From positions 117,056,001 to 117,120,000 of the forward strand of contig OX597818.1 in assembly GCA_951406725.2 (NCBI GenBank): a stretch of DNA of 64,000 bases, written 5' to 3'. The number at the start of each line of letters is the position of its first letter. Within the stretch, counting starts at the first letter, position 1. The DNA comes from Octopus vulgaris. Taxonomy: Eukaryota. Under the pieces are notes generated by a model that was not told the origin of the DNA, did no database searches, and was given only the letters and a program-made list of their open reading frames with translations. The position numbers were made by a program, and so were the translations under genes. Below, in pieces: positions 1 through 60,530 of the stretch.

Positions 1-3000
1 ACCAGTGGACAGTTGATCGAATTTACGCTAGTGGACAGTTGATCGAATTGAGACCAGTGGAAAGTTGATCAAATTTGCGCTGGTGGTCAGTTGATCGAAT
101 TTTCGCCAGAAGTCAATTGATCGAATTAACTCCAGTGGACAGTTGATCGAATTTTCGCTAGTGGTCATTTGATCGGATTTACACCAGAAGACGGTTGATC
201 GAATTTTCTCATGTGGATAGTTGATCGAATTTTCGCAAGTGGACAGTTGATCGAGTTTTCGCTAGTGGTCAGTTGATCGAATCTACACCAGTGGACAGTT
301 GATCGAATTTTCGCTTGTGGACAGTTGATCGAATCTACACCAGTGGACAGTTGATCGAATTTTCCCAAGTGGACAGTTGATCGAGTTTTCGCTAGTGGTC
401 AGTTGATCGAATCTACACCAGTGGACAGTGGATCGAATTTTCGCTTGTGGACTGTTGATCGAATTTTCTATAGTGGACAGTTGATCGAATTTTTGCTAGA
501 GGATAGTTGATCGAATTTACACTAGTGGAAAGTTGATCGAATTTTCCCAAGTGGACAGTTGATCGAGTTTTCGCTAGTGGTCAGTTGATCGAATCTACAC
601 CAGTGGACAGTTGATCGAATTTTCGCTTGTGGACTGTTGATCGAATTTTCTATAGTGGACAGTTGATCGAATTTTTGCTAGAGGATAGTTGATCGAATTT
701 ACACTAGTGGAAAGTTGATCGAATTTTCGCTAGTGGACAGTTGATCGAATTTCCATAAATGGACAGTTGATCGAATTTTTGCTAGTGGACATTTGATCGA
801 ATTTAGCGCAGTGGAAAATTGATCAAATTTGCGCTGGTGGTCATTTGATCGAATTTACACCAGAAGACAGTTGACCGAATTTTCCCCAGTGGACAGTTGA
901 TCGAATTTTCTGATGTGGACAGTTGATCGAATTTTCGCAAGTGGACAGTTGATCGAATTTTCTATAATGGACAGTTGATCGAATTTTTGCTATTGGACAG
1001 CTGATCGAATTTTCTGTAGGGGATAGGTGATGGCTGATTGAATTTAGACAAGTGGACAGTTGATCGAATTTTCTCTAGTGGACAGTTAATCGAATATTCG
1101 TCAGCGAACACTTGATCGAATTTACACAGAGTTGAATTTTCTCTAGTAGACAGTTGTTCTAATTTTCTCTAGTGGACAGTTGATCGAATTTTTGCTAGTG
1201 GACAGTTGATCGAATTTACACCGGTGAACAGTTGATCGATTTTCGCTAGTGGACAGTTGATCGAATTTTTGCTAGTGGACAGTTGATCGAATTTACACCG
1301 GTGAACAGTTGATCGATTTTCGCTAGTGGACAGTTGATCGAATTTAGACCAGTGGACAGTTGATCGAATTTTCATCAGCGGACAGTTGATCGAATTTACA
1401 TCAATGGACTGTTGATCGAATTTTCTCTATTTGCCAGTCGATCGAATTTTTGCTAGTGGACAATTGATCGAATTTTCACCAGTGGAGTTGATCGAATTCA
1501 CATCAATGGACAGTTGACCGAATTTTCTCTATTGGAGATTTGATCGAATTTTTGCTAGTGGACAGTTGATCGAATTTTTGCTAGTGGACAGTTAATCGAA
1601 TATTCGTCAGCGAACAGTTGATCGAATTTACACAGAGTTGAATTTTCTCTAGTGGACAGTTGTTCGAATTTTCTCTAGTGGACAGTTGATAGAATATTCT
1701 CCAGTGGACAGTTGATCGAATTTTCGCTAGTAGACAGTTGATCGAATTTTCGCCAGTGGACACTTGATCGAATTTCCTCTAGTGGACAGTTGATCGAATT
1801 TACACCAGTGTACAGTTGAGCGAATTTCCGCTAGTGGACAATTGATCGAATTTGCACAAGTGGACAGTTGATCGAATTTACAACAGTGGACTATTGATCG
1901 AATTTTCGCTAGTAGACAGTTGATCGAATTTTCTATAATGGACACTTGATCGAATTTTCTCCAGTGGACAGTTGATCGAATTTTCGCTAGTAGATCGAAT
2001 TTAGACCAATGGACAGTTGATCGAATTTTCGTCAACGGACATTTCATCGAATTTACATCCATGGAGAGTTGATTGAATTTACGTCAATGGACAGTTGATC
2101 GAATTTTCTCTAGTGGACAGTTGATCGAATTTTTTCCAGTGGACAGTCGTTCAATTTTCGCTAGTGGAGAGTTGATCAAATTTTCGCTCGTGGACAGTGG
2201 ACAGTTGATCGAATTTACACCTGTGGACAGTTGATCGAATGATTGTCAGCGGACATTTGATCGAATTTACATCCATGCAGAGTTGATCGAATTTACATCA
2301 ATGGACATTTGATCGAATTTCCGCTAGTGGACAATTGATCGAATTTGCACAAAAAGACAGTTGATCGAATTTACCACAGTGGACTGTTGGTCGAATTTTC
2401 GCTAGTAGACAGTTGATCGAATTTTCGCCAGTGGACAGTTGATCTATTTTACACTAGTGGACAGTTGATCGAATTTACACCAGTGGACAGTTGATCGAAT
2501 TTGAGTTACTGGACAGTTGATCGAATTTTCGCCAGTGGAAAGTTGATCGAATTTACACCAGTGGACAGTTGATCGAATTTGCTTTAGTGGACAGTTGATC
2601 GAATTTTCGGCAGTGGATAGTTGATCGAATTCGCACAAGTAGACATTTGATCGAATTTACACCAGTAGACAGTTGATAGAATTTTCGTTGGTGGACAAAT
2701 TATCGAATTTGCACAAGACAGTTAATCGAATTTACACCAGTCGAAGTTTCACAAGTGGACAGTTGATCGAATTTTTCTCAAATGAGCAGTTGATCGAATT
2801 TAGACAAGTGGACAGTTGATCGAATTTGCACAAGTAGACAGTTGATCGAATTTGCACAAGTAGACAGTTGATCGAATTTTCACTAATGGACAGTTGATCA
2901 AATTTTCGTAGGTGGACAATTGATCAAATTTGCACAAGTAGACAGTTGATCGAATTTTCACTAGTGGACAGTTGATCAAATTTTCGTAGGTGGACAATTG

Positions 3001-3107
3001 ATCGAATTTGTACAAGTAGACAGTTAATCGAATTTACACCTGTGGACAGTTGATCGAATTTGTGCTAGTGGACAGATGATCGAATTTTCGCTAATGGACA
3101 GTTGATC
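1..3107 (+). repeat. 26-bp tandem satellite/minisatellite, roughly 120 units, running off the window start
   Basis: Near-constant core AGTGGACAGTTGATCGAATT plus a variable hexamer (TTCGCT, TACACC, TGCACA, TTCTCT, TAGACC). ORFs across it repeat every 26 aa (3x26 nt). Confidence 0.97.
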
Positions 3108-7768: not shown

Positions 7769-10213
7769 GGTGCGAAAAATGTTTAAGTAATAGTTAATAT
7801 ACAGAAGATATAAAATGCAGAGTGAAATGGAGGAATGAAAACAGACGTGAGATACGTAAGGATATTGAATTTGCAGTACCATTATTTAAGAAGAATGACC
7901 TATATATGTTTCCTGTATCATGTGTGTGAGTTCCAATGGTGTTTATAATTGGTCATTCCAAGCATGGAGTCTTGTAAACGGTGTTATTTGATCGATGGAT
8001 TTTTGGAAGTGGCTTAAAAGTTGGGAATGTATTTGTAAGGTCAAATCAAAAACAGAACAAGAGAGAAAAAACAGGAAGAGAAAAAAATGTATAGGTATAC
8101 GTGTGTGTGTGCACGTATGTATTATATATGTATATATATATAAATATATATATGTGTGTGTTTGTATATTTATATGCATATATGTATGTGTGTGTAGGTG
8201 TGTAGGTGTGTATGTATATATATATATATATATATATATGGGTCAGTGAATACACTCTTTACTACATCTATTTCTACACTGATCTCCCAAACTAATTTTA
8301 ATATCTTAAACCTTACAAAAGCAGTTCCTCAATAATCATGGTTGCCTTTATTGTTTGAAAATAATTCATCCAAATAACAGCTGTCTGGAACATTGCATTC
8401 ACTGTTGTAACTTTTTCCGGGCAATTATACCTACAGTGAAATTTTTCCGTCCATCTTTTAATGCTTCTCATCTTAACTGCTTCTCAACTGCAGTCTGCAT
8501 AATTTGTATCTTTAAACTGGCAGTTTTTTCAGCAGTATTGCCACTGAAAAAATTCCTCTAAATGTCCTGTCCGCTTTTTAAAATGCTTCACAGCATCGAC
8601 TAGATAAATCTCCCCGAGATCTCACAGCATTCCACTGCATCAGACTCAACATCTCTCTCGCATACAGACGCCAACTGCTTCAAATCGACAAAAACATCTA
8701 ACTCTGAGAATATCCTTCCATTACTCTCAAACAATGCGCCATATAGATTATCATTTTTTTCTTATCGAACGCTACAACCTCCTCTTATCGATATATCCTC
8801 ATATTTCAAGCCCCACTACATCGTATCACATCTCCAGCGAAGAGAAGCAGAACGAAAGTTGCGAAACAGAAGGTGATGAATGTTATAAACCAAATCCATG
8901 ACTTTCTTTAGATGAAGTTTAAGATGTACTGAGCATATCACAGCTAGACATCCCTATGATACGATCCAACATATTTATGCAGCCTCTTCTCATTGCATTT
9001 CATTTCACATTCAGGTACGTTCGATGCTTGCATCAGTCTTCTGGCCCATAAGACGGTTATTTTCGTTGGCAGATATCAACAGGGATCAACGAAAAATTGT
9101 TCGCTAAAATTATATACAAAATAATCTTGTTTAATGATTTTCTCCATATCAACATACATGAAAACCTGTATGTTACCAGTATCACCTTCTTCAAATCCTA
9201 CTTTCTGCAATATTTGTTCAAGAGTGTTGCTGACGGATACTGCTTCATCTTTTCTGTGTAATATCTACAACAGGTTTGGATAAGAGATTTCCAAAGATGT
9301 CCAACTGATTGCCTTTCACCACAAATATATCTTATTGGTTACCTCATATAATTATTTCCAGAATCGTTTGAAAGTTTAATGTATATTCTCAATATCTGTA
9401 ACAATCGGACTTCTAAGATAACGTGACTCGAACATGTAAGTATTTTTAATGCTTAAGCTATATTAATGCCTTTGTTTTTGATGGAATGGAAATTAATTCT
9501 AAAAGAATGAACATTTAGGTAGAATCGAAATCTGAAATACAGCTAAGATTCGTTTCAAACTGCAGAGAAGAGTTTTTCTCCAAATTATTTCGCTCGGTTA
9601 CGTTTGGGAGCAGGACAAACAAGTTACTCTTTAGATTTGCGCAGATCAATATTGATTTTCAGGTAACATTTATTGCTATTACAATATCAAAAGTAATAGA
9701 AAAAAATCTATGGACTAAAGTTTCAGATATCTTGTGACTTTTGTTCCTTACAACAGCATGTAACCAGCTTTCTTTGCTTAAAACTTCGTTGCTTTTATTC
9801 CACTTTTCAGCTAAAAAGATATAAGAAGTTATGTTTTTCCAAAACAGTCCGCATGTATCTATGTAAAAACTGGATTTGTTGGATAATTACCTATTTACGT
9901 CCACCTGCTGTTTTCGTGTTATCCGAATGCTGTTTGTATGAAAAACAGCACACGTACAGTGATGTGAATATATTTATTTCTCATTTAATACAGAGTATTT
10001 GTTATCTGTACTCCAGCGGATATATTTTGAAATATTTAAAGAAACTATTGAGTAAATAATTAATTTCAAAGTTAAGTTGTTTCTATTCGATAAATATTTT
10101 TGCAAAATTTCGACAATGGATTATATGAGATACTTTCAAGTATGTCGTTAGCTATTTCATTTTATTTGTGAGAGATAATATATCATCGGTGAATATAACA
10201 ATATTCTCGGTGG

Positions 10214-10996: not shown

Positions 10997-11032
10997 CTTT
11001 CTGTGGAAGAGCGTAGGCTCGAAACGTTAAAG
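10997..11032 (+). ncRNA. Hammerhead-like motif with variant core CTGTGGAA, in a ~160-bp repeat (10965-11125)
   Basis: CTTT-CTGTGGAA-GAGC-GTAG-GCTC-GAAAC-GTT-AAAG. A second family copy lies on the minus strand at 41222-41257. Confidence 0.55.
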
Positions 11033-11259
11033 ACTTCTTCACTTCCCGAGCATTATACTAATACATCTGTTTGTTGTCTACACCACCTGTCTTCGTCTTT
11101 TTTTTTTTTGTGAATTCTCCCCCTAGTTATATTATAAATTTAAAAAAATATTTATATTATGCAATGAAAATTAGAATAAAGTATGTTGCAACAAATACTG
11201 ACTTCATATTTATAGAGCAAAACTTTTTTAGTTTAAAATAGAAACATTATTATTTCTAA

Positions 11260-11680
11260 GGCGCAGGAGTAGCTGCGTGGAAAGGAGCTTGCTTACCAAC
11301 CACATGGTTCTGGGTTCAGTACCACTGTGTGGCACATTGGGCAAGTGTCTTCTAATATAGCCTTGGACCGACCAAAGACCTTTAGATTTGGTAGACGGAA
11401 ACTGAAAGAAGCCCGTCCGTATATATATATATATATATATGAATATGTGTGTGTGTGTGTGTATGTATGTATTTGCGTGTGTGTGTGTGTGTTTGTTCCC
11501 CACCATCGCTTTACATCCGATGCTGGTGTGTTCACGTCCCCGTAACTTAGCAGTTTGGCAAATGCGATCGATAGAATAAGTACTAGACTTACAAAACAAT
11601 AAGTCCTGGGGGCGATTTGTTCGACTAAAGGCTGTACTCCAGCATGGCCAAGTGAAATGACTGAAAAAAGTAAAAGAGTA
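11260..11680 (+). mobile_element. tRNA-derived SINE family A with internal (TA)n(TG)n tract
   Basis: Head GGCGCAGGAGT..., B-box-like GGTTCAGTACC, tail (GTAAAAGA)n. At least 8 homologous copies occur in the window. Confidence 0.9.
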
Positions 11681-11714
11681 AACCTCTCAATGAGAGATAT
11701 TCAGTTATAGTTCA

Positions 11715-12222
11715 GTAAAGTAAAGGCTATTTGCCAAAACAATGTGGCTGTCCTGAAAGGAAGATTGCTGCTGTTGTTGAACCCCAGAAAACATCGTTTC
11801 CAGTTGGTTATACGACACAAAAATCTGTGTCCTTATTTTATCGAACAGGGTGTCCAACACTCACATCCAGCACTGTCACTGTATATCTCTCTGTGAGAGA
11901 TTTAGAAATAATAATATTTCTATTTTATTAGATCAGTGACTGAGTGTCACTTTGAAAACTATATATTTGCGAACGGTGAGTTTAGCAACGCCACCTAGCC
12001 AAGCAGTTACTCTGTGTTGATAAATGGGAACAACCCAGAAACCGGTCCACAGCTGTTGTTCTATGCTGGATAGGAGAGCTGGACTCACTGTTCGAAAATA
12101 TAAGGACACAGATATTGTGTAATATAGCCTGCTGGAAACAATGTTTCCTGGGGCTAAACAACGGTAAAAATCTCCCCTTCCAGGACAGCCACATTATGTT
12201 GGGAAATAGCCATTACTTTCTT
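11715..12222. mobile_element. Inverted-repeat element (arms ~11715-11871 and ~12064-12222) with a hammerhead in the spacer; candidate retrozyme/PLE-derived
   Basis: AATGTGGCTGTCCTG...CCCCAG...TCTGTGTCCTTAT is the reverse complement of the right arm. The hammerhead is at 12012-12052. Confidence 0.75.
12012..12052 (+). ncRNA. Minimal type-I hammerhead ribozyme, U3-A8 variant
   Basis: CTGTG-TTGATAA-A-TGGG-AACAA-CCCA-GAAAC-CG-GTC-CACAG. Perfect 5-bp stem I, 4-bp stem II, palindromic stem III ACCGGT, GUC site. Confidence 0.8.
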
Positions 12223-12499
12223 AGTTTGTAAAACTTCAATTAATTTTCGTATTTAGTTACAAAATTACGAGAAATCACAAGAAAAGAAATAATAAATCTC
12301 TGAACGAGATGTAAACAGTAACCGCTCGACAACGTAGAGTATACTAGCCATCTCAATATGGCAAACCACTAAGGGTGGGTGTTACTGTAGCTACTAGCCC
12401 CAGGAGATCATCGTTTCCAGCTGGCTTTAGGCACACTTTCTGTGCTCTTATGGTATTTGCAAAGGGAGGTCATCCTTCTCTCATAAACCTAAGTGATAC

Positions 12500-12541
12500 G
12501 CACAGGCTGCAGTTCGAGGTATTTGCCTTTTGTCAACGTAC
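12500..12541 (-). ncRNA. Mutated copy of the U3-A8 hammerhead
   Basis: Minus strand GTACG-TTGACAA-AAGG-CAAATA-CCTC-GAAC-TGCA-GCC-TGTGC. The GAAAC and GTC elements are damaged. Confidence 0.65.
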
Positions 12542-12874
12542 GCCAATCACCGGTTTTCGATGAAAGGAGACCTGTTTGCAAATATCTATTTAATGTTTTT
12601 CCCAGTAACTTCCGTCACTGAAAGTGTGCCTAAAGCCAGCTGGAGACGATGATCTTCTGGGGCTAAAAGCTACAGTAACACCTACCCTTAGTTGTTAGCC
12701 ATATTGAGATGGCTAGTATACTCTACGTTGTCGAGCGGTTACTGTTTACATCTCGTTCAGAGATTTATTATTGCTTGCAGACAGTTTTTCGAAATCAGTG
12801 ACGGAAGTTACTGGGAAAAACATTGAATAGATATTTGCAAACAGGTCTCCCTTCATCGAAAACCGGTGATTGAT

Positions 12875-12917
12875 GTACGTTGACAAGAGGCAAATACCTC
12901 GAAACTGCAGTCCGTGC
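12875..12917 (+). ncRNA. Minimal type-I hammerhead ribozyme, U3-A8 variant
   Basis: GTACG-TTGACAA-GAGG-CAAATA-CCTC-GAAAC-TGCA-GTC-CGTGC. Stem I is 5 bp with one G-U, stem II is GAGG/CCTC, stem III is the palindrome ACTGCAGT, with a GUC site. Confidence 0.85.
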
Positions 12918-13585
12918 GTATCACTTAGGTTTACGAGAGAGGGATGACCTCCCTTTGCAAATACCGTAAGGGCACAGAAAGTGTGCCTAGCCATAATGAG
13001 ATGGCTAGTATACTCTACAAGAAAAGAAGTCTTTCTAAAAATATATTTATAATGTGAAAATTTTACTTAAAATGCTATCGAATTTGCACGCGTGCGTAAT
13101 ACTCGTCTTTCGCTAAACCATTTTGCCTAACCTGGCCTATCCAGATTTTCAAGATATATATAACTATTATCTATTATAAGACACAAAAATGTCATTGGTA
13201 TGTACATATACTTTTCGTTATTTCGTATCCTGCTTTCTGTGTCACTTTATCTCTTTTGCCACACGCTCATTTTTAAAGTGTGCCACAAGGCCAGCGATTT
13301 CGGGGTATGGTTAAAGTAAATATGATCGACTCCAGTGCTCAACTGGTATCAATTTTATCGATTCCTAAAGGTTAAATGTTAACGTCGAGGTCAGCCAAGT
13401 TTTGAACACAGAAAGTAAAAACGGACAAAAATGTCGCTAGGGAATTTATCCGGCGGGATTGCATTACCGTCAGCTTACCGCCTTCAAACACACATATATA
13501 CCATGTTCATGTATTAACCTACCTACCTACCTACCTACCATTCCACGTTTCTAGCTCCCTCTGTTTATGTCTTCCCCCCTCTCTC

Positions 13586-13633
<48 letters not shown>

Positions 13634-13831
13634 TACATATATAATATCTATATATGATACATATATAATATATAATAATGTATTATATGTATATATTATA
13701 TATATATGTATTATACAGAGTGTCCACAAAGTCTGGGTCCATGGGGATTAACACATACTTTAAGAAATTATTATTTCTTATATTTAATTCTTTATGTTAA
13801 AACTTTATTTAATCCATGTACCCACATGGGG

Positions 13832-13895
<64 letters not shown>

Positions 13896-14496
13896 CATAT
13901 GTACATATGTTTATACATTTATGTGTAATATTTGTACATACAAATACGTGTGTATTGGTTTCAAATTTTGGGGAAAGGAGTAAGGCCATTTCATCGACCC
14001 CAGTGCTCAACTGGTACTTAATTTCTGGACCCCGATAAGGACGAAAGGTAAAGTTGACCTCGGTGGAATTTGAAATCAGAACGTAACGACGAACCAAATA
14101 CTGTTAAGCGTTTTAACGATTCTGCCAGCTTGCAGTTTTACAAAAACCTATATATTAATATGATGTCCTTGATAGTATATATTTCTTCGACCTCACTTCC
14201 TGCTTTTATGATGTAACGCAAACTGTGCAATAGCAAGTTAATCGTATGTTATCGATATTTCTTCATTTCATTGTTTTTGCAGAGATTAAATTCTATATTT
14301 GTTTGAAAATCGATTATCGAGTATTTTTCTACCTAATTGTTTATTTTCATAGCTAGAAATAGTTCGGTATTTCAGGATGGAATAATTCGTTTTAAAGATT
14401 GATTCCTTCAGTACCAGGTTTTAAGACTTAATAGCATATTTATATATTTAACATATATACACACGCATACGTGCGTATATATTGGGAAATATACAC

Positions 14497-17088: not shown

Positions 17089-17411
17089 CTGATTACCTGG
17101 TATGTTTTATCCAACAAGGCTACATCCATAATAGTGCCCCGCCTTCAATTTAATTATCACATTATCTCTCTGATAAGCCAGCAAATAAAATTTTACAATA
17201 TCAAAATATTACTTCTTCAGGTAACTAATATGCTTCTCATGAAGTTAGGAAAGATTTAATTTGTGATTCTCCCCACGTCACTACATCATAATTATCTTTA
17301 TCTCGAAGTTATTCCTGATCAGAATATTCATTTAAGAAATAAGCATTTCACTGAGTTTATAAAGTTACGAAACCAATGTGGCAGTTATTCCGTCTTTTCT
17401 AGTACCATACC

Positions 17412-17827
17412 TATTTCTTTACTACCCACAAGGGGCTAAGCACAGAGAGGTCAAACAAGGACAGACAAATGGATTGAGTCGATTATATCGACCCCAGTGT
17501 GCAACTGGTACTTGTTTAATCGACCCTGAAAGGATAAAAGGCAAAGTCGACCTCGGCGGAATTTGAACTCAGAATGTAACGGTAGACGAAATACCTATTT
17601 CTTTATTACCCACAAGGGGCTAAACATAGAGGGGACAAATCAAGGACAGACAAACGGATTAAGTCGATTACATCGACCCCAATGCGTAACTGGTACTTAT
17701 TTAATCGACCCCGAAAGGATGAAAGGCAAAGTCGACCTCGGCAGAATTTGAACTCAGAACGTAACGGCGGACGAAATATCACAAAGCATTTCTCCCGGCG
17801 TGCTAACGTTTCTGCCAGCTCGCCGCC
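17412..17827 (-). mobile_element. SINE family B head-to-tail dimer with TSD
   Basis: Two ~185-bp bodies and one head (GGCGGCGAGCTGGCAGAAACG), flanked on both sides by TAGTACCATACC. The central GTCGACTTTGCCTTTCATCCTTTCGGGGTCG resembles a Nin/Deu-type SINE domain. Confidence 0.9.
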
Positions 17828-21846: not shown

Positions 21847-23549
21847 CAAGAACGAGACTACCACTGCTACCACCACCACCACCAACATAAATGATAAAAA
21901 TGAAACTGACACAAATACCATTAACAACAACAACAACAACAAGAATAACAACAACAAAAATGAAATAAATATTATATCATCCAATAGTGAAGATATTATT
22001 AACATTACAGAAACAGCAGTACCTGAAAAAGCCACGTCCAAGAATATTTCGGATACAACAACAACAAAAACACACAACGACAACAACTGTCAGAATAGGA
22101 CAGTGAATTTCGCTGACACCCTGCGTCAGAAAAAATAAATAATAAAATTTACAAATGAAGAGTTGATAGAAACGAGAGCACTCTTTACAAACTCAGGGCA
22201 GGATTTAGTATTGCATACACCTCAACACATAAAGGAACAAATAGAAAACAAAACGATTATATATAAAATTATATTAAAAAAATAAACAGATAACAAAAAA
22301 GGACATAGAAAAGTGTGCAAAAAACATCATGAAAAAAAAGAATATATATAAACTGAGGTCCCTAGTTTAATACAGTGGTGGTCCGCTTCCCTAACCAGGA
22401 AGTGGCAAAAGCTCACTCTACGGAGACTTTACAAAATGATGAAATCATCATGATTCTGTATTACAAAGGACAAAGAGTGAGCAAAATTAGAATTAAAAAT
22501 GTCCCAACAGATATACCACCCAAATGGATAACATCGGCGATATGTTACCATTTAAAAACGATAAATATATTAGAAATCGCCGTGTACAAAAATGACAATT
22601 GGGGTCGTAAATCGATAGAAGTTACCATCCAGATTGATGGGTCCTCTATCGAGAACCTATCTGATAGGATTCATTCAGAAAATGGGCAACGCCTATATGT
22701 TGTAGCAGGAGGGAAAAAGCCAAGATGCTACAGCTGTGGCAGCCCAGAACACTTAATTGCAAAGTGCGTTCTAGGACAGAAAAAACAAGGAAGAACAAAT
22801 CAGAAAACAAATAAAAAACACTTGCTACCAACACCAACACCACACTCAATTATGGAACAATGCCAAGAAAAGAAACAGCACCAACACAATTACCGTTGAC
22901 GTCGCAACCAATTAAAGATACTGAACCAACACCAGCACCAAGGACGACATCTAAAAAAACAGAAAGCAGTGACGAGAAGACAAATTCTACCCTTAACACC
23001 ACAACACATACACCGCACAAAATATCAACAATTTCTACAAACATACTTATTAACGCAAATGCTTTGCCTTTACCTCCTTCTGATTCGTCGGACTCGTCGT
23101 CCAACGACGAAAGTTCGACGGAATGGCAAATAGCCACAGGTGGTAAAAGGAAAAGATCGAAAAAGCCCACCAAACAAGTAAGTAAAACAGGGAGATATAT
23201 AACTCCGGACAGCATCCCCTTAGACAATCAAAAAATCAATGACCCCGCAAAACCACACACACAACTATCAGCAATAGACACAGACAATAAAAAACTAATG
23301 GATTACATTGCATCCAACAAGAACATCTGTGAAGATGACTTTAAGACAAATAATCATCCGCGCACTACACCACCGAAACACCTAAGAATTGTACACATAA
23401 CACAAACACAACACAATACACTGAAAACCATATTTCCAAATGCGGTAGGGGGGTTTCAAAGATACCTATCAAAAAAACTATTCAAACACCTCCTCAAAGA
23501 CACAACAAAAAAAGAAGAAAAAATTGAAACTTTCGAAATGAGTAAGTGA
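21644..23549 (+). pseudogene. LINE ORF1 (gag-like, zinc knuckle), broken by stops and frameshifts
   Basis: Fragments 21587-22138, 22375-22899 and 22860-23549; CYSCGSPEHLIAKC is a CX2CX4HX4C knuckle. Confidence 0.8.
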
Positions 23550-23615
23550 CCTTCCCTCTTGCCTCTTGTCTCTTCCAATATAGTGTGTGAAACACAAATT
23601 TCTTAAGCGTCAATT

Positions 23616-26600
23616 ATGCTTAAATTAGGTTGTGTGAATGTGCATGGCTTGGCGTCGGCTTGGAAACAAGGTTACCTTCTAAACAACATCAAGTCACTGA
23701 ACATGGATATAGTAGCTATCAGTGAAACCCGACTCAGCAAGTCATGGGCCCTCGCGTCCATGTTTGGCGATCAATTCGACATTTATTTTTCTCCCTGTCT
23801 GCCGAACATGGGTGGTGGAGGTACCGCGGTGCTTTTTCGATAGAGTCTAAATGTAAAAGTAAGAACAATATTCCTAGACCCGGGGGGTAGGCTGGTTGAC
23901 TTGGACGTGGATGGCAGAAATGGGTTTGCATTCCGTCTGATGGCAGTTTATGCACCGTCCTTAACGGGTCGGACGTATTTCTTCAGACGTCTAGAGGTTT
24001 TCCTGGGTACATCTAGACCTTTACTGTTAGTAAGGGATTGGAACGCTACCTTGGACACGCATCTAGATTATGTGGGAATGGATAGGAATAGAAGGAGGTG
24101 TAAGTGCCTCAAAGACCTACTCAGACGTTTCCACTTGTCTGACAGGTTCCGACTTGACCATCCGAACGTGCCAACGTGGACTTGGACAAACCGCGTCGGA
24201 TCGTCGAGATCTTATCTAGATAGAATTCTATGCAGGACAGCGGATAGGGATAGTGTAGGATGTCCACAATTTAAAATGGTCAGCTACACAGATCACAAAT
24301 TTGTGACGTGTACGCTCGACTTAGATAAGACACATAGATAGGGTCCCGGTTACTGGAAACTGAACACGTTGCTCTTAGCGCGACAGGTTTACAGGAACCG
24401 GATTAGCGAGTTAATTAAGAGGGCGCTGGCGGGAGCCGTCGTTAGCAACCGCTGGTGGTTCGCCCTGAAAATGGCAATAAAATCGGAATCAATTAGGTTT
24501 AGCAAGGAATTAGCGATAGATCGAAATATAGTAGAGGGAGACCTGGTTAAGAATCTAGAAGAGGCACTTACCACTGGCTGCGCAACCAACTGCGAGGATG
24601 GCCCTCGACCAACACCTCAACGCCAAGCACGAAGGTTGCGTCGTCAGAGCTAAAATGCGTGCCTTAAGGAAGGAAGGGATCGAAGCTGCGCGAGAGGCCC
24701 GGGTAGCGGAGGCGCAACGTGGAAACAGAGCCACCATTCAGTCTCTAATAGATCAACAGGGATGCAGTTTACTCGAACCCGAAAGGATGTGTGAGGCCTT
24801 TCAACAGCACTTTGCTCGACTGTTTGGTGCGAGTGGTGGGTCGGAACGCGGGATGGATTTCAGTGCCTACCTGACCGACCTGCCACGGCTCTCGGCAAAA
24901 GAAGCGGAGTGTTGTGAAAGTCTCGTCACAGCCGCTGACGTGCGGGATGCGATGGCGGGCTGCGCGAGGGATAAGTCGCCTGGATTGGGTAGTTTACCCT
25001 ACTAGCTGTATTGTCAAATGCCAGACTTGTTTGGCGACCTCTTGGCATCAGTCTACTGCAACTGGCAACAAAACGGGAGAATCCCCGGTTTCGTGAGCCG
25101 AGGTGCAGTGACGTTGCTGAAGAAAGACCCAAACAAGGGGAATTTTATAGATAATTTCAGGCCCATCACTCTGCTCAACGCAGATTTGAAAATTTTGGCC
25201 AAAGTAAGCCGAGAGGTTAGCGCTTGTCATTGGTAAACTGGTCGACAGGGGGCAAACATGCGCCGTGCCGGGCAGAACCATACATGACAACCTCCATCTG
25301 ATGCGCTACATTGTGGACAGAGTAGTTAAGGATCCTGGCATGGGTGGGGCGCTGATCAATTTGGATCAGTCTAAAGCCTTCGATAGGGTCGACCATCGGT
25401 ACTTGGCGGCCGTCCTCATGGCGGCTGGCTTCGGTCCCGTCTTCCGCTGTTGGATCGCTGCCTTGTATAGCGGCATCCGATCGGTGATTCGAGTGAACGG
25501 TCACCTGTCGAAACCGTTTGACATCACGCGTTCGGTCCGTCAGGGGTGTCCCCTGTCGGCGCTTCTGTATGTATTGACTCTCGAGCCGCTACTGCGGAAG
25601 CTGGCGACACTGAGGGGCATCCCACGGGAACTGGGTTGCGGGACGAGCGTGTCGGCATATGCGGACGATGCCACCGTCATAGTGTCGAGCGAAAAACACA
25701 TCCAGATTATAGGCGAGACACTAAGAAAATACGAAACGGTGACGGGAGCGAAAATTATCCCGGAAAAGTCAGTGGGTTTGCTACTAGGCACCTGGAGGAG
25801 CAAGCCCATACCGTCCGACTGTGGCTCAGTAGTGGGACGCTGGACGGACGGACCGGTTAAATTGCTCGGGGTCTGGTTCAGTCCGGACCTCCAAATGGAT
25901 AAGAACTGGGACGAGATCACGAATAGAGTGGTCGCTCTCAGCCAAACATAGGCCGAGAGAAAGCTGTCTCTAAAAGGTCGGGCGGAGGTGGCGAACGCGT
26001 ACATCGCATCCGTCATCGATTACCGCCTGACCGTCGTGCCTTGTCCCGACGCCACTATAACCAAACTGGAACGCATACTCTTCGGCTTCCTGTGGATGGG
26101 TGGCGTTCCGATGGTGAGGAAGTTCATTTGCTGTCAACATCCGTTGAATGGAGGACTGGTCATGCCGTGGTTGATGATGCGCAGGCATGCGCTGAGACTG
26201 CGACATCTCTGGAACTTCATCGATGACGGTGAACAGGTGTGGGCGCCGTTTGTGAGGCGCACCTTCCCGCAGCTGGTCTCACTGACCGAATTGCAAATGT
26301 GAATCAAGAAGAGACCGAAACTGGGCGATTGGCACCGAGAGTGTCGCCAAGCTCTACAGCAGCTCTGCCGACCGGGGTCAAACTTGTGCAACTTACTAAC
26401 GACTAAAGCGTTTTAAAGAGGACTAGTGGAGGGGAGGTCCGACGACACACTCGGGGCAAATCTGGGCGTCGACGAGAAATTCCTAACCCGCCTGTTCAGG
26501 ACGACGTTCGGGCCGGGGCCTATGGATAACTTCCAGAAATGCTTGGCAATGCTATCGAGACGCACTACCTGTTCGAGAGAAGAGCTACAGGCACGGTTCG

Positions 26601-27041
26601 AAAACCATCACCGGACCGACCTGCCCGAGATGCGGTCAGAGCGACGAAACCATTCTGCATGCACTCGTGCAGTGTCCAGATATTTCAGAGCTGTGGACCT
26701 TCGTCGAACAGCTGTTGTCGCGTGTAGGACGGGCCCGCTTATCGGCCGAGTCTATCGTGAATATTGTTCCACCACCTTCCTTTAAACGGGAAGGGAAAAC
26801 GGTTTTCGTTACGCTGATGGCTATGGCGAAAGAATGTGTGTGGTGGACGCGTTTGAAAGGACTTCAAACAAACACCTTCCTCTCTGGTTCGTCTCTCGTC
26901 AACTTTTTCAAGTACCACTTGTAAAGGAGGATGAGAATAGAGAGGAAGGATTTGTCGAACGGAAGTTTTAATAAAAAATGGGTAAAAGTGGTAAAAATGG
27001 TCAGTATGAAAGACGACACTATTTTAAGCGTAAATCTGTAA
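23616..27041 (+). pseudogene. LINE ORF2: AP-endonuclease + reverse transcriptase + C-terminal Cys/His domain, with multiple stops and frameshifts
   Basis: APE motifs NVHGL, ISET, DWNA, SYLDRI, TDHK. RT motifs FRPITLLNADLKILAK, LDQSKAFDRV, RQGCPLS, AYADD. Confidence 0.93.
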
Positions 27042-44346: not shown

Positions 44347-44761
44347 ATACATCTCAAAGACTATTTTATACGAGTTCAATGATCGTGGTGTAATTCAAAA
44401 AATATTTGGCTGCTCTTTCTAGGAGGCCAAGGTTTCCTGTATAATGTGTACTCTGATGTTTGTATTGCTGATAATTCCACCTTCACCATTCTATTATTGG
44501 TGCAGACAAAATAATGCACAGCAACAATAATACTATTAATTTTTCTTCCTCTAATTGTAATTATTCTTCATGCACGATTTGCTGCCAATATTATTTTTAA
44601 TATTTGAATTATAGCTGCTATTTGAACAATTCTTTACTACATGCACACATACAGACAACCACACGTACACAGACAGACACACAGACGGTAATGCAACCTC
44701 CATTGATATTTCATGTTCCAATATCCGAATTTGGATGTTGAATACTGAATAATTTCTTACC

Positions 44762-45345
44762 TATTTCTTTACTACCCACCAGGGGCTAAACACAGAGGGG
44801 ACAAACAAGGACAGACAAACGGATTAAGTCGATTATATCGACGCCAGTGCGTATCTGGTACTTATCTAATCGACCCTGAAAGGATGAAAGGCAAAGTCGA
44901 CCTCGGTGGAATTTGAACTCAGAACGTAACGACAGACAAAATACCTATTTCTTTATTATCCACAAGGGGCTAAACATAGAGGGGACAAACAAGGACAGAC
45001 AAACGGGTTAAATCGATTATATCGACCCCAGTGCGTAACTGGTACTTAATCGACCCCGAAGGGATGAAAGGCAAAGTCAACCTGGGCGGAATTTGAACTC
45101 AGAACGTAACGACAAACGAAATACCTATTTCTTTATTATTCACAAGGGGCTAAACACAGAGGGGACAGACAAGGACAGACATGGGTATTAAGTCGATTAA
45201 ATCGACTCCAGTGCGTAACTGATACTTAATTTATCGACCCCGAAAGGATGAAAGGCAAAGTCGACCTCGGCGGAATTTGAACTCAGAACGTAACGACAGA
45301 CGAAATACCACTAAGCATTTCGCCCGGCGTGCTAACGTTTCAGCC
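44762..45345 (-). mobile_element. SINE family B head-to-tail trimer
   Basis: Three ~180-bp bodies joined at AAATACCTATTTC, with a single head. Confidence 0.9.
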
Positions 45346-59189: not shown

Positions 59190-60530
59190 AGCACTATCTC
59201 CTTCTTCGACTTGATGGAACGTCCCAGAGACTTAGTGAAGGGCTTCATGGGAGTCGTCCAAAGTGAAGATGTCAAGGATACTTATCACAGTCTTCTTCGT
59301 CTACTTAATGTTTTCCAAACGAGGGGTTCTTCAACTTAGGAAATAACCAAATGTCTCAGGGATGAAGGTCTGGAGGGTAAGGAGGTGACGTATAGTTTTG
59401 ATGCGAATCTCTGTCAAGTAGTTCGTTACCTTGATGGACTTATCAAGTGGTGCATTCTCTTGGTCCGGGTGAAACCGATCCGAGTGGACGTGTTGTAGGC
59501 TTTTGCGACGAAATATCTCCTTGAAGTCCGTCAAAATCTCCACAAATTACATTTTGGTGTCCGTCTGAAGGGACAATATGGGGAATGTAGATAAGGCACT
59601 TATTGACGGAAAAGGGGATCCTCAGAGGTCTCCCAGTGGACACGGCTACCTGGCCTTCTTGAATCTTGGCATTCCATCTCTTGGTCTCTAGTTCTGGATC
59701 ATAACACTAGTTCCAGTTTTCATCACAAATCACCAGATACTCAAGCGTTCTTCGACTAGAAGAAATTAACTCAACCATCTCCTTGCTGTCAGCAACACAT
59801 CTTCCCTTCTTTTTGTCATTGGTGACCCTAGAAACCATCTTTGCACAAATTTCACGCATGTTTAGTTCTCCGTTAGTAATTCAGAGTAAAATTTCCACAC
59901 CAAATCCAAACCGTATGCTGAATGTGTTTATATATTTCTTTACTACCCACAAAGGGGCTAAACATAGAGGGGACAAACAAGGACAGACAAAGGGGTTAAG
60001 TCGATTACATCGACCCATGTGCGTGACTGGTACTTTATTTATCGACCCCGAAAGGATGAAAAGCAAAGTCGACCTCGGCGGAATTTGAACTCAGAACGTA
60101 ACGACAGACGAAATACCTATTTCTTTATTACCCACAAGGGGCTAAACACAGAGGGGACAAACAAGGACAGACATAGGTATTAAGTCGATTACATCGACCC
60201 CAGTGCGTAACTGGTACTTAATTTGTCGACCCCGAAAGGATGAAAGGCAAAGTCGACCTCGGCGGAATTTGAACTCAGAACGTAACGCAGACGAAATACC
60301 GCTTAGCATTTCGCCCGGCGTGCTAACGTTTCTGCCAGCTCGCCGCTTTGCTGAATGTGTTTATTGACACATGACGGTCTTCATTCAGATAATCATGAAT
60401 TTTCTCCAACAGCTCTGATTCTGACGTCCGTCTTCCTCGCACAACTCTCCTCGTCTTTCACTCCCTCTCGACTAACCTTTGACCTCTTTTGACAACGATA
60501 AACAGTTGTTCAAATCATAGAAGTTAATCC
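59190..60530 (-). pseudogene. Decayed mariner (DD34D-type) transposase interrupted by a SINE dimer
   Basis: FHPDQENAP..SIKVTNYLTEIRIKTIRH resembles the mariner H.DNAP.H...YL...IKT..HPPYSPDL region. Confidence 0.7.
59933..60347 (-). mobile_element. SINE family B dimer with 16-bp TSD
   Basis: TSD TGCTGAATGTGTTTAT at 59916-59931 and 60349-60364. Confidence 0.92.

Follow-up and report, generated by a model that had tools for sequence, protein, structure and literature searches.

Natural hammerhead ribozymes with U3-A8 in place of the canonical C3-G8 core were reported in 2011 as rare examples and are active in vitro (Perreault et al. 2011, PMC3088659). Minimal hammerheads with the same core occur in the Penelope-like elements (PLEs) of Schistosoma mansoni, where a dedicated descriptor retrieved ~1,300 motifs, with palindromic helix III and with pairs on opposite strands (Cervera & de la Pena 2014, PMC4209133). 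Mussel retrozymes are 350–390 bp in length and circularisation of their monomers has been shown (Cervera & de la Pena 2020, PMC7229834), and retrozymes have been argued to derive from the pLTRs of PLEs as non-autonomous forms (Li et al. 2026, bioRxiv 10.64898/2026.07.22.740005). PLE copies themselves show partial tandems, inversions and a 30–40-bp tail (Craig et al. 2021, PMC8557442), and the PLE protein cuts and extends both strands, with two internal start sites defining the tail (Frangieh et al. 2024, PMC11167929).

Two hammerhead motifs were analysed in the window, which is the whole 64,000-nucleotide stretch of Octopus vulgaris DNA under study. It is very probable that these hammerhead folds lie in two homologous, high-copy, non-coding, retrozyme-like units of ~357 bp (families A and B), likely inserted by PLE enzymes and with predicted self-cleavage. 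The U3-A8 variant picked out in the sequence-only reading of this DNA is not new, being already in the available text of PMC3088659 and PMC4209133. The core swap was thus known, and the A and B units mostly fit the known kind of non-LTR retrozyme, as described in the available text of PMC7229834.

Hammerhead motifs of the window and their repeat families

Three features of the window have a hammerhead layout:
12012..12052, plus strand: family A type I minimal hammerhead (descriptor scan), U3-A8 core at 12017-12023, palindrome ACCGGT, predicted cleavage after C 12047
12873..12919, plus strand: family B type I minimal hammerhead, U3-A8 core at 12880-12886, G10.1-C11.1, palindrome ACTGCAGT, predicted cleavage after C 12912
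12500..12541, minus strand: damaged family B hammerhead with GAAC for GAAAC, GCC for GUC and A·C in stem II, predicted inactive

In the descriptor scan the family A motif was divided into CTGTG TTGATAA A TGGG AACAA CCCA GAAA CCGG TC CACAG, giving a stem I of 5 bp, one extra A and a stem II of 4 bp, and the family B motif into ATGTACG TTGACAA GAGG CAAATA CCTC GAAA CTGCAG TC CGTGCGT, with stems I and II of 7 and 4 bp. Both contain the type I core (U4 G5 A6, A9, G12 A13 A14, A15.1-U16.1, H17), a three-stem junction and an open stem I, and in both the 3-8 Watson–Crick pair is U3-A8, as it is mostly, but not always, across the families. Dinucleotide shuffles contained a mean of 0.01 strict descriptor matches per window and none of 100 contained two. 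The scan and the shuffles confirm that the two U3-A8 motifs proposed earlier are real type I minimal hammerheads, with bounds of 12012-12052 and 12873-12919. The copy at 12500-12541 had been listed alongside the second motif; it lies on the minus strand, and its lesions break the conserved core. A third TTGANAA match (9316-9404, minus strand), with stems II and III of 2 bp each, was attributed to chance, the loose descriptor giving a shuffle mean of 0.35 per window.

The expectation that searches based on CUGANGA would miss this family was borne out. A CTGANGA descriptor found no hammerheads in the window, and an Rfam scan of the window returned none at the gathering score. Among 23 Rfam matches at E<=10 over positions 11000-14000 none was a hammerhead, and both motifs fall below the Rfam hammerhead thresholds. 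Folded alone, the short motifs were no more stable than shuffled sequences (z of -0.88 and -0.91), and stem III was absent from their monomer minimum free energy structures. The computed self-pairing of the palindromes was strong (-8.3 kcal/mol for ACCGGU and -11.1 kcal/mol for ACUGCAGU), which would fit a dimer-type hammerhead. Private substitutions account for the 4 bp of stem II in the 12012 copy; the family A majority reads A-GGG-CAAUAA-CCC-A, with an A·A mismatch at 10.1/11.1. Both motifs are hammerhead-shaped RNA folds, each within a decaying copy of a 357-base non-coding repeat, and self-cutting at the two sites is predicted.

The genome searched comprises 2.8 Gb in 227 contigs. Both motifs belong to high-copy repeats, with 2,711 and 1,147 first-look candidates, which are candidates and not copies; degenerate patterns gave 761 and 337 exact matches and reversed controls gave none. 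Fetched loci of both families, mapped on the monomer, resolved into units of ~357 bp, with a tandem period of 355–357 bp. The majority sequences of A and B were 67 % identical (228 of 340 aligned positions, score 192, against a maximum of 35 in 200 shuffles), and in an alignment of the window copies the hammerheads fall at matching positions. The units are therefore homologous, so that the two motifs, put forward as independent compensatory cases, are relatives and not independent evidence.

Family B is young and family A older, with copies differing from their own majority by 3.4 % and 8.8 %, respectively. A family B array (L120/L121, G000:C4, ~13.619–13.624 Mb) holds 10 consecutive hammerhead copies at 355–357-bp spacing, all U3-A8, in units 98.6–100 % identical, nine of the 10 hammerheads having a loop II one base longer. 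This homogeneous array is a candidate source locus of family B. No array was seen for family A, and tandem units each with a complete hammerhead are known in family B only; in the window the copies occur as partial tandems or inversions. The family B monomer is strongly self-paired (fold z of -5.43, 0 of 100 shuffles), with circular fold z scores of -5.0 (B) and -4.6 (A) relative to 40 rough shuffles. No ORF of at least 120 aa lies within 11869-13018. In size (355–357 bp, within the 170–400 nt of non-coding retrozyme monomers) and, for family B, in having at least two consecutive complete units (the 10 copies of the array), the repeats resemble retrozymes.

Variation in the stems and at the 3-8 pair

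Covariation was examined in 11 hand-picked subfamily representatives; these rows are related and were found with patterns that favour stem II pairing, which inflates the counts, and the shuffle values should not be read as probabilities. Covariation is seen in stems I and II, with 91 % of cells paired compared with 22–48 % in slid controls, and 10 of 12 pairs have changed on both sides (1 of 500 shuffles). None of the 11 differs at the catalytic positions U4, G5, A6, A9, G12-A15.1 and U16.1. The patterns placed no constraint on the stem III insert, which was palindromic in 48 of 60 loci, with six different sequences, as are positions 15.2-16.2 and loop 3 of PLE pLTR hammerheads; seven of the remaining loci were non-palindromic, most of them one change away from a palindrome, and five were unparsed.

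Mutations within families gave a different picture. Private mutations in family A hit the core at 10 of 290 sites and other positions at 164 of 4799 (P=0.59), and these copies show neutral decay. In family B the corresponding values were 1 of 252 and 73 of 4455 (P=0.087), or 1 of 252 and 106 of 4455 (P=0.019) when all differences were counted. An initial core-versus-flank test (P=0.023 for A, 0.005 for B) was discarded, as its reference sites lay outside the BLAST query; the test was redone inside the query with private mutations only. Taken together, the covariation between subfamilies and the private mutations place selection at the level of the master copies, where it acted on the fold, likely that of a dimer; for copies once inserted it is not clearly seen. 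Of the proposal that covariation with intact stems points to selection for catalysis, the part that holds is therefore the covariation of the stems between subfamilies; family A copies bear no visible sign of selection once inserted. It is very improbable that two independent compensatory changes record ongoing selection for catalysis at these loci. Both motifs are U3-A8 with paired stems and the core of family B varies less when all differences are counted, but the homology of the units largely refutes this explanation, neither private-mutation test reached significance, and the core is already broken in the inverted copy of the same insertion.

When positions 3 and 8 were left free, the 72 family B matches comprised 62 U-A, eight U·G, one U/U and one G/A, with none carrying C3, and the 17 family A matches eight U-A, seven C·A and two U·G. 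Counted by eye among the first 100 listed of the 761 wider-pattern matches, there were 82 U-A, 14 U·G, three C·A and one U/U; the first 100 listed of the 337 matches to the other wider pattern gave 87 U-A, five C-G, five C·A, one U·G and two with A3. In line with the sequence-only reading, U3-A8 is thus the family consensus and not a product of random transitions. CpG decay of G8 was rejected as the origin of A8 in family B, since A8 is present in 62 of 72 matches at ~3 % divergence and just 4.6 % of the cells at CpG sites are changed.

The copies with C-G make up a family of their own, homologous to A (67–69 % over 245–265 bp), so there is real 3-8 covariation inside the superfamily. Loci L203 and L213 (1497-1537) belong to this C3-G8 family and have an AGAG/CTCT stem II and an ACTAGT palindrome. 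U3·G8 is fixed in two subfamilies, one with its palindrome changed on both sides (CUGCAG to CUAUAG) and the other nesting among U-A subfamilies; this nesting does not support U3·G8 as the ancestral intermediate. In the U3·G8 subfamily of L078-L084 (e.g. L083:1001-1043), which has the palindrome ACTATAGT, the 3' strand of stem I is altered too. The subfamily tree was built with FastTree and midpoint rooted, with five of 105 rows (L043, L059, L061, L072, L073) mis-anchored and ignored. C3·A8 was found in eight of 30 BLAST-found and seven of 17 pattern-found family A copies, and C3 was associated with variants elsewhere in the unit (best P=0.0005 of 28 sites tested), which suggests a sublineage. 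The 3-8 pair is not strictly Watson–Crick: U-A dominates, and C-G, U·G and C·A lineages have spread too. Compensatory covariation at U3-A8 consequently stands in so far as there is a true C3-G8 relative in the superfamily, but not as a pairing strictly kept.

All 25 RF00163 loci examined, of 59 matches in the genome, had C3 and G8, which indicates that the Rfam model favours the canonical core. Hammerhead families with the canonical core that are unrelated to A and B are also present in the genome; among the canonical CUGANGA type I families at L130-L154, five (L131, L132, L135, L144 and L150) have an insertion of ~60 nt in stem-loop II.

Insertion scars and Penelope-like elements

The family A and family B insertions of the window have the following parts:
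11679..11873, minus strand: second arm of family A, inverted and 5'-truncated, no hammerhead; 3' end abuts a repeat that we take to be SINE-like
11869..12219, plus strand: family A unit, positions 1-351 of the ~357-bp monomer, sharing 82 % identity with another copy and terminating at the short 3' end
12277..12288, plus strand: left target-site duplication of 10–12 bp, ACAAGAAAAGAA, one of the pair of copies flanking the family B insertion
12284..12621, minus strand: inverted arm of family B; 3' end is the long (tail) end, monomer position 144
12616..13018, plus strand: main arm of family B, one complete unit of 357 bp (12633-12989) followed, after a deletion of ~62 bp, by the short 3' end (12988-13018)
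13017..13028, plus strand: right target-site duplication ACAAGAAAAGAA, its first two bases overlapping the element end

The family B insertion therefore spans 12284-13018, with two outward-facing arms and ACAAGAAAAGAA at either side, and the family A insertion (11679-12219) is likewise two-armed. The presumed SINE-like repeats, at 11504-11682 (adjoining the family A insertion), 17407-17778, 44758-45309 and 59933-60300, are abundant and some are 184–185-bp tandem dimers or trimers. Elsewhere the window contains a 3.1-kb minisatellite with a 26-bp unit (2-3107) and a broken non-LTR retrotransposon (22366-26924, plus strand) with RVT_1 (25208-25948) and zf-RVT (26487-26921) by Pfam; an endonuclease-like piece (23844-24341) was recognised by eye and had no Pfam match.

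Across the genome, family B 3' ends cluster at monomer positions ~97 (32 of 66 segments) and ~143 (20 of 66), two fixed ends ~46 nt apart, and the 5' ends are scattered. Two-arm insertions made up 17 of the 41 examined, and 15 of the 17 combined one short with one long end (exceptions L019 and L096). Among these 15, seven had a non-repetitive duplication of 8–13 bp, four lay in TA repeats and four had 7 bp or less; the flanks are AT-rich and the duplication counts stand without a shuffle control. The two fixed 3' ends with their tail, the variable 5' ends, the inverted arms and the duplications match the PLE pattern described in the available text of PMC8557442 and PMC11167929. Judging by these insertion scars, A and B were likely spread by Penelope-type retrotransposon enzymes.

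Autonomous elements are plentiful in the genome, with many GIY-YIG elements and repeated open frames of 781 aa. In one such ORF, GIY-YIG exceeded the Pfam cut-off and RVT_1 narrowly missed it (28.9 compared with 29.6); the ORF also has a CX2-5CxxC linker, a feature assigned to the Neptune and Nematis clades (PMC8557442). The hammerhead in the pLTR of the autonomous elements, UUGAUAA-GGUUC...GAACC-GAAA-CAUG-U, was found by a strict regular expression in 10 of 28 loci, all U3-A8, with five more loci having a variant stem II. The elements end at two 3' positions ~40 nt apart and adjoin TA runs. Canonical EN+ PLEs are described as having a single ORF. In two young autonomous PLEs (L122:581-4284, from G000:C5:1040000-1046000, and L125:268-3971, from C6:133343500-133349500) a 479-codon frame lies upstream of, and overlaps, the 781-codon RT/GIY-YIG frame in a different reading frame; the 479-codon frame had no Pfam match and an uninformative best Atlas score of 0.77.

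A blastn comparison of the A and B monomers with the 28 GIY-YIG loci detected no pLTR homology, and the sole two loci with matches contained separate retrozyme copies near PLE pieces. A PLE partner that mobilised A and B is thus putative. With no ORF and no such homology, A and B do not lie inside the pLTR of an RT/GIY-YIG element, as the hammerhead of the separate autonomous family does. PLE endonuclease remnants were detected by tblastn beside four family A loci (L041, L060, L061 and L071). On inspection they are read as separate insertions close by, at TA runs. At L041 and L071 the family A unit lies directly 5' of a TA run that is followed by the remnant, an arrangement consistent with common TA targeting.

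Mechanism, alternatives and known systems

In the mechanism proposed, pairing of the palindromic stem III would join two hammerheads within a tandem transcript, and slow cleavage at GUC would free a monomer of ~357 nt, which may then become circular. The RT and endonuclease of a PLE would cut both DNA strands with a stagger of ~11–13 nt at AT- or TA-rich sites, and cDNA primed at two internal start sites, one per strand, would give outward-facing inverted arms. Selection would act on a few master templates, keeping the fold and the palindrome and favouring a pyrimidine–purine 3-8 combination (mostly U-A, sometimes C-G), with U·G and C·A lineages still allowed to spread. The window copies would be passengers that decay after insertion. 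The A·A at 10.1/11.1 in the family A majority, together with C3·A8 in seven of 17 copies, suggests that family A may have been a poor cutter that spread anyway.

The main rival, which we regard as rather unlikely, is that the hammerhead is a relic or a structural element for dimerisation or protein binding, its fold kept for RNA pairing or recognition by the RT and cleavage being dispensable. This would accommodate the apparent C3·A8 sublineage of family A (eight of 30 and seven of 17 copies), the two subfamilies fixed for U3·G8 and the A10.1·A11.1 of family A. The available text of published work offers further points in its favour: PLE insertion in vitro was unaffected in hammerhead mutants (PMC11167929), Naiad PLEs lack canonical hammerheads and have still spread (PMC8557442) and PLE minimal hammerheads cut weakly in vitro (PMC4209133). 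However, the catalytic positions are invariant in the 11 representatives even though A and B are only 67 % identical, the commonest 3-8 states (U-A and C-G) are Watson–Crick, and hammerheads with U3-A8 show activity in vitro (PMC3088659, from earlier work cited there).

It is improbable that the units are solo pLTR fragments of an unsampled autonomous Penelope-like family and not separate non-autonomous retrozymes. Hammerheads of S. mansoni PLEs are mostly single motifs or opposite-strand pairs 100–700 bp apart, from truncated PLEs (PMC4209133), which would suit such an origin, as would the endonuclease remnants in the four family A loci and a sample of 150 scored among 6,136 GIY-YIG candidates. 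Against it are the head-to-tail units at 355–357 bp with no ORF between them and the position of the L041 and L071 remnants, which lie 3' of the unit behind a TA run, not in the order ORF then pLTR, and fit shared TA targeting. In addition, none of the family B loci searched by tblastn had a PLE protein match. Retrozyme-like units inserted by PLE enzymes therefore remain our preferred explanation. A broader interpretation is offered as a tentative possibility, in which the superfamily is a natural allelic series of the 3-8 pair (U-A, C-G, U·G and C·A) with all lineages amplified and with a stem III palindrome that was rewritten six ways but retained in every subfamily. On this view, fast catalysis would be less favoured by selection than cleavage that is gated by the dimer and deliberately slow, or than dimerisation of the RNA itself. 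The two-armed insertions, with a short and a long end and an 11–13-bp duplication, might then be the trace left in vivo when a Penelope enzyme starts at two sites on a non-coding RNA and primes both strands of a single cut.

The value of these data is chiefly practical and comparative, the most worthwhile part being the natural 3-8 series with its conserved palindrome. As a retrozyme-like superfamily and the sampled autonomous PLEs use a core that is missed by Rfam and CUGANGA searches, ribozyme censuses in this animal group are likely undercounts. The subfamilies are ready natural variants with which to ask whether the rate of cleavage influences how PLEs and retrozymes spread, a question left open in the available text of PMC8557442 and PMC11167929, and the insertion scars provide a test, from genomic data, of the model of two-start-site, both-strand PLE priming. 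In literature covering few subscription titles, no report was found of natural U3·G8 or C3·A8 lineages or of cephalopod hammerhead retrozymes; the supplements of PMC4209133, PMC7229834, PMC8557442 or the bioRxiv paper may list such motifs.

Compared with the metazoan non-LTR retrozymes, as presented in the available text of PMC7229834, the octopus repeats share a non-coding tandem unit of 170–400 nt, a type I hammerhead, strong self-pairing and co-existing autonomous PLEs. They differ in their U3-A8 core, of which that text makes no mention, and the sampled copies, known here from DNA alone, are mostly dispersed insertions of 1–1.5 units, often inverted, and not arrays. With the hammerheads of the Schistosoma Cercyon PLEs (PMC4209133, available text) they have in common U3-A8, palindromic 15.2-16.2 and loop 3, a dimer-type layout, pairs on opposite strands separated by a few hundred bases and invisibility to a C3-G8 descriptor. 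In contrast to Cercyon, stem II is 4 bp and not 7–8, A and B are unattached to an ORF, and families A, C and E lack G10.1-C11.1; family B combines G-C at 10.1-11.1 with no added base behind position 9, the A copy of the window includes this base but has U-A, and the A majority has A·A. The core covariation is the same as in the natural U3-A8 hammerheads of PMC3088659, rare in the available text of that paper and the majority state of a large superfamily here. The insertions resemble those of EN+ PLEs (available text of PMC8557442, PMC11167929 and bioRxiv 10.64898/2026.07.22.740005) in 5' truncation, partial tandems, inverted arms, an optional tail between two fixed 3' ends and AT/TA-rich targets. 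They differ in lacking coding capacity and in a tail of ~46 nt compared with 30–40, and, unlike in the Xenopus cases, no homology was detected between A or B and the pLTRs of the autonomous elements sampled here.
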